Part shown: piece after piece, positions 16,365 to 22,600 of the stretch | Layout: each line of letters starts with the position of its first letter | How positions within the stretch are numbered: position 1 is the first letter of the stretch | Assembly (NCBI RefSeq): GCF_018350175.1 | Contig: NC_058381.1 | Location: forward strand, 54,994,001 to 55,058,000 | Direction: 5' to 3' | DNA length: 64,000 bases | Origin: Felis catus | Taxonomy: Eukaryota | The notes under the pieces: generated by a model | Databases searched by the model: none | Seen by the model: only the letters and a program-made list of their open reading frames with translations | Told to the model about the DNA's origin: nothing | Translations under genes and position numbers: made by a program

Positions 16365-16626
16365 TTACAAGTTTTTGGCAATAAAGTGAGAAGAGAAATA
16401 AAGTTTGGGGGCAGAAGTTCCTCCTTCTGTAGTCTGAACAGTGATGTCTCTGGACAGGATATCGATGGGCAAGGAGGGCTGTAGGCCGTCGTCATCAGGC
16501 TGACTGTGTTTCCCACAAATTGCCCACTGAGGCCTGTTCACCCAGAGGACGGCACTGAGCATAATCAGAAGCAGGGGCACCTTCAGGAATATGAGGAGCA
16601 GGAAGTGGACGCGGTCAGGCAGGGAC
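16365..16626 (-). CDS. CD300H: CD300H TM/cytoplasmic terminal exon (Lys in TM, activating type)
   Basis: Phase-2 acceptor tgttcctcctacag|G. Encodes [32 protein letters not shown]...AKNL* with TAA at 16365-16367. Confidence 0.9.
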
Positions 16627-19600: not shown

Positions 19601-22600
19601 CGGCACTGCACGCTCAGGGATCCCCCCTCGGTGCCTGTCACAGTGCTGGGGCCACTCAGAGATGAGAAGCCTGAAAAAGACCATCGGTGCTTTCTTCACC
19701 TGAAGAGCCTCGACTGGAGGGGCCTTGAGGGTCAGGTCCCCTGGAAACCCAGAGGTCACCCTAAGGCTCAAGGAGGGAGGGGTCAGGAACCGAGAGGTAT
19801 GGGTTGTAGGTGGACACAAGGGGGAGACCTCTGAAGTTCCCTGGTGTGAGATTCTGAGACGCAGAGAGCCTGTGTGGGCTCAGCCAACTTAGAAGTGGAG
19901 GGAGAGGAAGATTTTGGGTGCTCTCAGATAGGTTCTGGGTCCCCAGACCTGTCAGTACTAGAGGAAATGGCTGTGTCCATCAATTACCAAGAACTGAATG
20001 AAGCCACTGAGTATATTCTGAATAAACAGATGGATGGATGGATGGATGGATGGATGGACAGATGGAATAGAAAACAGGAAGCAAGAACGGGAACCAAGGA
20101 AATCTAGATGAAGCACAGTATTGAGAGCTAGAAGGAAGCCTTCAGCTTCTGGCTATGTCCCCTTCCCCAATGATCACCTGTAAGCCCCAAGCTTATAATC
20201 CCTGCTTGTATAGGTGGGACCCCCTGTTCATATGTCTGGGTCATGTCGGAGATGGGAGTCGGCGAGGGGTAGAAAGAGACCATAAGGAAGGGGTTCATTT
20301 GGGCTCTGATTCAAGGACATTCACACTCGATGTCCTTCCTGGGACAGAAACCTGTGGCAACACTTGCCATCACCTGACATCTTTAGGGACTCCCTGCTCC
20401 ACACTGCTCCCTTCCCCACCCCTCGGCAGCCACCCACCAGCCTTGCCATGCCCTGGGCCTCATCTCTAGCTCTTCTGCCAAACCCAAGGTTTTGACATTG
20501 TCCTCCCTCCCCCAGTCACCCAGGAAGCTCCAGTATGAAGTGATTAGGACCCAGCCCCCTAAACCCTGTGCTTCCTGCCTGGAGAGCCATGCCGGTCCCA
20601 GGCACCCGAGGAGTCCTCATTACGCCAAGGAACAGCTATTGTCTGATCTGTTCTTTCTTTATTATTAAAAAAATGTTTTTATGTTTATTTTATTTTTGAG
20701 AAAGAGAGAGACAGAGCACAAGCAGGAGAGGGGCAGACACAGAATCCGAAGCAGGCTCCAGGCTCTGAGCTGTCAGCACATAGCCCAACACGGGGCTCGA
20801 ACCCACAAACCATGAGTTCATGACCTGAGCTGAAATCGACACTTAACCAACTGAGCCACCCAAGCACCCCATTATCTCATGTGTTCTTAACAAGGAAGGA
20901 GGTTAACCCAGGGCAAAAGGACAGTGAGAAATTATTTGGGCAAAATACCCAACTAATCTTTGCTTCCTCATTTTAAATACCTTGCATTTTCTCACTGGAT
21001 TTCCCAGCAAGCAAGCTCAAGTGGCTCACTGACCTATATTCTACATCACAAGGCTGTCTGCCTCTCCCACCAATAATCTGCAAAGCAGTGGTTCTCAGCA
21101 AGGGGTGATACTGCTCCCCCAGGAGACATTTGGGAATGTTTGTAGCCATTTTTGGTTGTTCACAACTGGAGGGGTGGGGAGTTGTTCCTGGCATCCAGTG
21201 GGCAGAGGCCAGGGATGCCGCTAAACATCCTGAAGCGCACAAGGCAGCCCCTTAACACAGAATGGTCCAGCCCCAATGCCAACAGTGGAGAGGCTGAGGA
21301 ACCTTGCTCAACGGGGCAAAATGCCCCAGTCTGAGGCCCTCCCGACGCAGGCTTCCGGCTGGGGGACTGGGAGCCACAACACTGAACCGTGTGCAGTTGC
21401 TGCTGTCCCAGGCTCAGGCTGTGGGGGCGCTGTTCTCTGCGTTTCTGATGGAGTCGGGGACGCTTTAGGACTGGCTTTCCACCTCACCTACTCTTCCAGT
21501 TGCTTAAGCCCTAGCCTGCGAGATCTGGAGCTGATTCCTCAGGTCTGGATAAGAAAACATTGTTAGAGATGCTCTGTTACACCTAGACCCTGACCTTGAC
21601 CCTGAGGCAGCCCGGCATCCCCTCCCCCGCCCCCGCCCCCACAACCCTCCTTGTGTTTTTTCTTCTCCACCTTCTCCTTGCTGAAGTGTGAGGGCTCTCT
21701 CCCCCCCTGTCTCAGCTACCTCTGGGGTGCTGCACTGCTCCTCCCCTGGCATGGGTTCTCTCTAAGATCCTACAGGACAGTGCTTGCTCTGTACCCATCA
21801 AGCCCCAGAGGCTTCCTACAGCTCCAATTGTAAGTCGAAGCCTTTGGTAATCTTAAAAAAAATAAATATAAAGTAAAAGAGACCTGCCTGTTAAGTGTAA
21901 TGGCAAGTAATCGGGTAGACAGAGAGAGATTTATCTCCTTTAGAAGCAGGAGGATGGCGGAGCTTGAGGTCTCCACAGGCCCTCTTGTGTATGGCCATCC
22001 CGCTGGGCTTGTCTCTGTTGCTGGAAGGTCATTGTCTACAACCCTGGCGAGTGTGTTTTCCTTTTGTCTGGTCTTAGTCTTACTGGTCAACCAGCTCCTG
22101 TGCGGCCTCTTGCCATGGGGCAAGGACTTTTGGACTTGGGCTTACAGACCAATTGAATTATAACTCTTATTAAATACAGAAAGTGTCAGGGTCCCTAGGT
22201 GGCTCAGTCCGTTGGGCATCTGACTTCGGCTCAGGTCATGATCTCATGGCATGTGAGTTCAAGCCCCCTGTGAGTTCAAGCCCCCTGTCAGTCTCTGTGC
22301 TAACAGCTTGGAGCCTGGAGCCTGCTTCGGATTCTGTGTCTCCCTCTCTCTCTCTGCCTCTCCCCTCTCTCTCTGTCTCAAAAATAAATAAAAACATTAA
22401 AAAATTTTTTATTTAAAAATTTTTTTTAATGTTTTTATTTATTTTTGAGACAGAGAGACAGAGCATGAGCAGGGGAGGGGCAGAGAGAGAGGGAGACACA
22501 GAATCTGAAGCAGAAGCAAGTTCCAGGCTCTGAGCTGTCAGCACAGAGCCCGACGTGGGGCTTGAATTCACAGACTGTGAGATCATGTCCTGAGCTGAAG

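Follow-up and report, generated by a model that had tools for sequence, protein, structure and literature searches.

The window that we have analyzed (the whole stretch of 64,000 nucleotides of cat DNA) contains a single CD300H gene. Probably, a base inserted at the end of its IgV exon makes the transcript which skips the stalk exon the in-frame membrane form, an event that likely took place before cats and dogs separated. The stalk exon is then probably a remnant in decay; if included now and then, it would give a secreted by-product.

Exon structure of cat CD300H

The best matches of the IgV exon in protein searches are proteins named CD300H or CD300H-like. Among the carnivoran RefSeq-type matches quoted, the IgV is 82–98% identical to that of the cat, and in the cat genome itself there is one match at 100%, the next paralog being found at 62%. 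A V-set domain is recognized in this exon (Pfam PF07686, 52 bits, with a cut-off of 26). The neighbour at window positions 1881–1546 has CMRF35-like molecule 6 / CD300c as its best match, and a Glu in its TM segment.

Table 1. Features of the CD300H gene in the window. Positions are those of the window.
Feature	Position	Strand	Remarks
Signal-peptide exon, coding part	24978..25017	-	from ATG 25017; phase-1 donor
CD300H IgV exon	19313..19670	-	358 nt; AG..GT-flanked; phase-2 end
C5 run with extra base	19315..19319	-	G5 on the + strand; C4 at the aligned place in paralog L002
Degenerate stalk exon	18371..18459	-	89 nt; AG and GT sites intact; shifted frame when included
Last exon, coding part	16365..16626	-	phase-2 acceptor; TM segment with Lys; tail ~55 aa; stop ending 16365
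TGA closing the stalk-included product	16583..16585	-	alternative frame, that of human soluble isoform 2
AG acceptor within the last exon, in frame, 93 nt from its start	16533..16535	-	counterpart used by caniform gene models

The exons are shown in Table 1. The IgV exon ends in TCC CCC AG/gtaag. When exon lengths are recomputed, the other intact IgV exons in the window, three in all, have 336, 330 and 330 nt and phase-1 ends, so the difference in phase claimed by the first-pass annotation is confirmed. Since the IgV end and the TM exon start are both in phase 2, skipping of the stalk is in frame. The direct join, which had been proposed to give a stalkless receptor, does so: its translation is open up to the final stop, and from ATG 25017 on it is identical to the RefSeq Felis catus CD300H model X2 (XP_006940618.2). 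With the 89-nt stalk, the peptide quoted in the annotation is obtained, and the product stops within the last exon before the TM segment, as it had stated. There is an alternative stalk acceptor at 18447, in the place where outgroup stalks begin; the stalk then has 77 nt, and the outcome does not change. These two products are identical, from ATG 25017 on, to RefSeq models X3 (XP_044900638.1, 89-nt stalk) and X4 (XP_044900639.1, 77-nt stalk); the RefSeq cat models start at an in-frame ATG further upstream, at 25101. Both proposed forms are thus already present in public annotation as automatic models, but these records are silent on the reversal described below and on its spread.

None of the 6 GT sites within 19340–19270 is a donor that would restore phase 1 near the IgV end. 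Other candidate donors of the stalk exon, which might give an in-frame form with four exons, do exist; none has transcript support, and we have rejected this form.

Several other elements are found around the gene. In RefSeq cat isoform X1, the last exon starts from an acceptor within the intron between IgV and stalk (window ~19003–18736, - strand), giving a TM-less product, while lion and tiger X1 models have a different downstream exon. A second TM-like exon, degenerate and with an acceptor which looks intact, is located at 15170–15271 (- strand), 1.1 kb beyond the last exon, and its counterpart is used as an exon in gene models of otter and seal. A segmental duplication covers positions 24750–39739 and 51578–64000, in pieces 82–97% identical. 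It holds a second CD300H-type signal exon at ~51804–51807, where the ATG reads ATA. Broken IgV copies are found near 27.9, 32.9, 56.9 and 59.1 kb.

Predicted receptor

Human CD300H is linked to DAP12/DAP10. In the cat, the TM segment of the skip form has a hydropathy of 2.73 over 19 residues, with the Lys inside. The tail after it contains no YxxL/I/V: its single Tyr is found in KLYFSS, and there is no ITIM-like motif. The Ser/Thr/Pro-rich stalk of the usual CD300 activating receptors is missing from the cat membrane form. Such a stalk between IgV and TM is usual in the family, and is described for CD300A in a passage of PMC12447643. According to a section of PMC7247439, CD300 receptors with a charged TM residue and no tyrosine motif in the tail signal through adaptors. 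The main product of the gene is predicted, from its translation, to be an activating receptor in which some 9 residues separate the IgV and the TM helix, and whose TM lysine serves for pairing with an adaptor.

Two features of the last exon vary among species. Compared with horse, pig, bats and primates, most carnivorans have some 40 additional residues in the cytoplasmic tail (16365–16510), canids being intermediate. The charged TM residue (16580–16582) is Glu in all five big-cat entries with a TM model: leopard, clouded leopard, snow leopard, tiger and lion (P0060, P0063, P0067, P0068 and P0069). It is Lys in all other carnivorans tallied; Glu is the residue of the CD300C type. This Lys to Glu change may mean a different choice of adaptor. 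It also abolishes the stop of the inclusion form, whose product becomes six residues longer.

Spliced contigs and accuracy of the assembly

Transcript evidence comes from assembled contigs, not from raw reads. We have used four runs from four studies, out of 19 runs with matches, and presume that they represent RNA. The joint which skips the stalk, from 19313 to 16626 (2686 nt removed, GT..AG), is present in contigs of all four runs. In three of them the signal exon is attached as a loose end, which has no mismatches with positions 24981–25006 and three mismatches with the second copy of the signal exon. Joints to or from the stalk exon are not listed in the contigs of any of the four runs. 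Contigs drop rare forms, so that these data show use of skipping and not absence of inclusion, and they give no isoform ratio. The first-pass annotation had proposed comparing the two junctions in transcripts: the skip joint appears in 4/4 runs and a stalk joint in 0/4, at the level of contigs.

The same annotation had asked for confirmation of the G5 run and of the stalk length. The G5 run is covered by contigs in the four runs, with no gap and no other letter, and one contig of run X1 spans the stalk exon with no indel there; this confirmation is partial, as it comes from contigs and not from raw reads. The extra base lies in a C run, and a terminal base is missing from a G run, as expected if homopolymer assembly errors had created both the extra C and the stalk indels. 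On the other hand, the same letters are found in the independent contigs of the four runs, and the same junction in dozens of other assemblies. Such errors are refuted in the window by the contigs, and across species by the junctions of gene models; we give this explanation a practically negligible probability. The extra C and the stalk indels are real in this window.

Between positions 16700 and 19000, runs X1 and X7 show 8 intronic differences and a 3-base deletion at 17086, none of them in a CD300H exon. They are consistent with another allele.

Nature of the frameshift

When the end of the IgV exon is aligned with that of L002, a paralog in the same cluster, the paralog has exactly one C fewer. 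A simple scan found no stalk exon for it. The CD300C-like paralog L001 of the same genome has homologous IgV and TM exons and, as in cat CD300H, a phase-2 TM acceptor. It differs in its phase-1 IgV donor, in its in-frame stalk (which enters in phase 1 and leaves in phase 2) and in having a TM Glu instead of Lys.

The stalk exon has changed as well. Its start matches the rhinoceros ASSSKSS and its end matches the horse SSQHQG, in a different frame. Stalk lengths implied from proteins are 1 mod 3 in horse (55 nt) and human (64 nt), but the cat stalk is 2 mod 3. The change of frame between the two ends, together with the length, bears out the earlier proposal that the stalk exon carries indels of its own.

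Distribution in Carnivora and other mammals

Named CD300H-type proteins were sorted by a classifier according to what comes after the IgV, giving 43 carnivoran and 47 non-carnivoran entries. Paralogs and fused models (P0001, P0002, P0008, P0010, P0049, P0055–P0058, P0080–P0084) were left out of the tally. Three clusters in it have 15 of 16, 15 of 18 and 15 of 25 members listed, and a few entries pool congeners. Predicted gene models, rather than cDNAs, make up most of this sample, and annotation pipelines may copy each other.

A direct join of IgV and TM is found in 39 of the 43 carnivoran species entries, among those listed, in seven groups: felids (14/16), hyaenids (2/2), meerkat, canids (4/4), bears (4/4), pinnipeds (6/8) and mustelids (8/8). 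No carnivoran entry listed has a normal stalk. The classifier gives the opposite picture for the non-carnivoran entries listed, with a normal stalk in 40 of 47 and a direct join in none. Among the seven others, Dama, Choloepus and Papio have a stalk on inspection, and the Propithecus model (P0151), which the classifier did not parse, has a shortened IgV joined directly to TM. In the Lontra model, the IgV is joined to a second TM-like exon.

Some mustelid models correspond to a duplicate copy. There seems to be a second CD300H-like copy in mustelids (RSQVVSIHFL; P0005, P0006, P0017 and P0097), likewise with a direct join of IgV and TM.

Unnamed contig ORFs probably give a view of the DNA that does not depend on gene models. 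Eleven of the 21 end in FVSPR, which corresponds to read-through of the cat donor, and seven continue with GK, as from a phase-1 donor. Running counter to the pattern, the UniRef models of lynx, lion and meerkat (three of the 43 carnivoran entries) read FVSPGPCLTAS, as if the donor were in phase 1, while the RefSeq models of the same species read FVSPRS. One tiger model reaches the FVSPGPCLTAS frame in another way. We take the carnivoran models with FVSPGPCLTAS as candidate projections of human isoform 2.

The simplest reading of these sequences is one insertion before the feliform–caniform split. The sample has no pangolin, so the lower bound for the date of this insertion is loose. Judging by gene models, the event is Carnivora-wide, older and wider than the first-pass annotation had supposed.

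We have also considered whether carnivoran CD300H might be a remnant, transcribed but non-functional or decaying, with in-frame skipping being fortuitous. Human CD300H is in fact a gene/pseudogene polymorphism (according to the names of protein records and to a passage of PMC9213612), the window has several broken CD300 copies, and surface expression of the stalkless form is a prediction. However, the IgV and TM frames are open and the TM charge is kept across the seven carnivoran groups, the IgV is as conserved as indicated above, and spliced CD300H transcripts appear in the four runs. CD300H is also included as a cDC2 marker of the dog in a listing from PMC10235626, and part of PMC9213612 reports that it is upregulated with age in dog cortex; both fit an expressed gene. 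We regard a remnant as very improbable.

Comparison with human CD300H

Human and cat CD300H share the order of exons (signal, IgV, stalk, TM) and the TM lysine, and their IgV are 73–77% identical. In both, two outcomes come from one choice between skipping and including the stalk, and the last exon is read to its stop in one and the same frame in the TM-less products. The outcomes, however, are swapped. According to the protein records, human isoform 1 (membrane; NP_001311002.1, P0191) includes the stalk and has the TM, while isoform 2 (soluble; NP_001311005.1, P0190) skips the stalk and ends in VSSGPCPAAPASCFSHS. In the cat, the form with a TM results from skipping, and the one lacking it from inclusion. 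The membrane form of the cat is stalkless, with about 9 residues from IgV to TM versus about 30 in human, and its tail is longer.

Models which are soluble by skipping make up nine of the 47 non-carnivoran entries listed (eight from primates, one from a bat), so that skipping likely existed before the insertion. Gene models thus suggest that in the ancestor stalk skipping would already have been the route to the soluble form. With an insertion of one base at the end of the IgV, the skip form would directly have become the membrane form: As the skip form was already there, the insertion would have been rescued immediately. The stalk exon, freed from coding constraint, would then have gathered indels, with a net change of +1 mod 3 in cats, a return to frame in meerkat and an absence from caniform models. 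We infer this order of events from the comparison. The choice between skipping and inclusion is probably older, and a single base likely exchanged its two outcomes before Carnivora radiated.

The first-pass annotation had proposed that a frameshift was rescued by exon skipping, with the role of the stalk exon reversed. The frameshift, its rescue and the reversal with respect to the human isoforms stand. The case for a functional two-way switch is weak: the inclusion joint is listed in 0/4 runs, itself a weak observation at the level of contigs.

Stalk inclusion: A leftover or a second state

TM-less inclusion models are found in seven of the 16 felid entries and in none of the 24 caniform entries, among those listed. 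The seven felids belong to both lineages, some of them have two acceptors, and in all of them the splice sites of the stalk are kept and its shifted frame stays open. The same would be expected of a functional secreted form, which is a point against the stalk being a leftover. Felid stalk inclusion might be under selection for a soluble CD300H, its level being regulated relative to that of the stalkless membrane form. The inclusion product ends in the same last-exon frame as human soluble isoform 2, but the chance of hitting this frame is one in three. Moreover, the last exon can be entered in three frames, two of which lack the TM. A product without TM is thus what would be expected by default, and inclusion leading to a secreted form needs no selection. 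The contigs, which join across the stalk in the four runs, also argue weakly against such regulation.

Other feliform models point the same way: In the meerkat, the inclusion model has an implied stalk exon of 72 nt and regains the TM frame. One Prionailurus model also regains this frame, through an extra segment. A search with the shifted stalk peptide found just two felid clusters among four candidates; it missed the meerkat model, so the search is insensitive. The shifted peptide varies more than the IgV. In the six felids with both models, there are 5 variable sites out of 29 in the shifted stalk, compared with 6/118 in the IgV, 3/35 in the TM part and 4/51 in the tail. The difference between shifted stalk and IgV has a Fisher p of 0.041, and that between shifted stalk and IgV, TM and tail together a p of 0.056, counting sites and not events. 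Stalk variability leans weakly towards relaxed constraint. We think it unlikely that felid inclusion is a regulated switch under selection.

The maximum hydropathy of the inclusion products ranges from 0.07 to 0.25, versus 2.73 for the skip form. Secretion of the inclusion form is a prediction, from hydropathy alone.

Caniforms produce TM-less models by another route: Six of the 24 entries listed use an acceptor inside the last exon, where FVSPR/PQW skips the TM. This acceptor is also present in the cat, at 16533, with no use seen in this species. Caniform TM-less forms could mean that soluble CD300H is useful. Perhaps, after an insertion in the carnivoran ancestor inverted the membrane/soluble switch, soluble CD300H evolved again separately, by stalk inclusion in cats and through the TM-skipping acceptor in bears, seals and weasels, with selection for a decoy alongside an unusually short stalkless activating receptor. 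We find this scenario doubtful. Most likely, the stalk-included form is a minor leftover and no switch under regulation.

Significance

We have found no description of a stalkless or reversed carnivoran CD300H in our search of the open-access literature. Compensated frameshifts and changes in exon structure are a known category in comparative annotation, as indicated in part of the TOGA2 preprint (10.64898/2026.06.30.735536). The cases presented there are like cat CD300H in that an apparent inactivating frameshift is found, with the frame still working via changed exon use. Cat CD300H is unlike them, as far as that part goes, because skipping of a whole exon provides the compensation and the membrane and soluble outcomes are swapped. 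The CD300 passage of the preprint concerns CD300LD only.

The order-wide reversal is a real and tidy evolutionary variant, whose isoforms were already annotated; a regulated switch is unproven. The cat gene opens no new class of mechanism. It presents a clean and dateable frameshift which has persisted across an entire order of mammals, thanks to a pre-existing splice form that could maintain the reading frame. Annotation projected from human would label carnivoran CD300H as broken, or as soluble only. In dog and cat immunology, those who clone or target CD300H should expect a stalkless receptor. With its domain held near the membrane, such a receptor may have a different reach towards ligands and may be shed differently.
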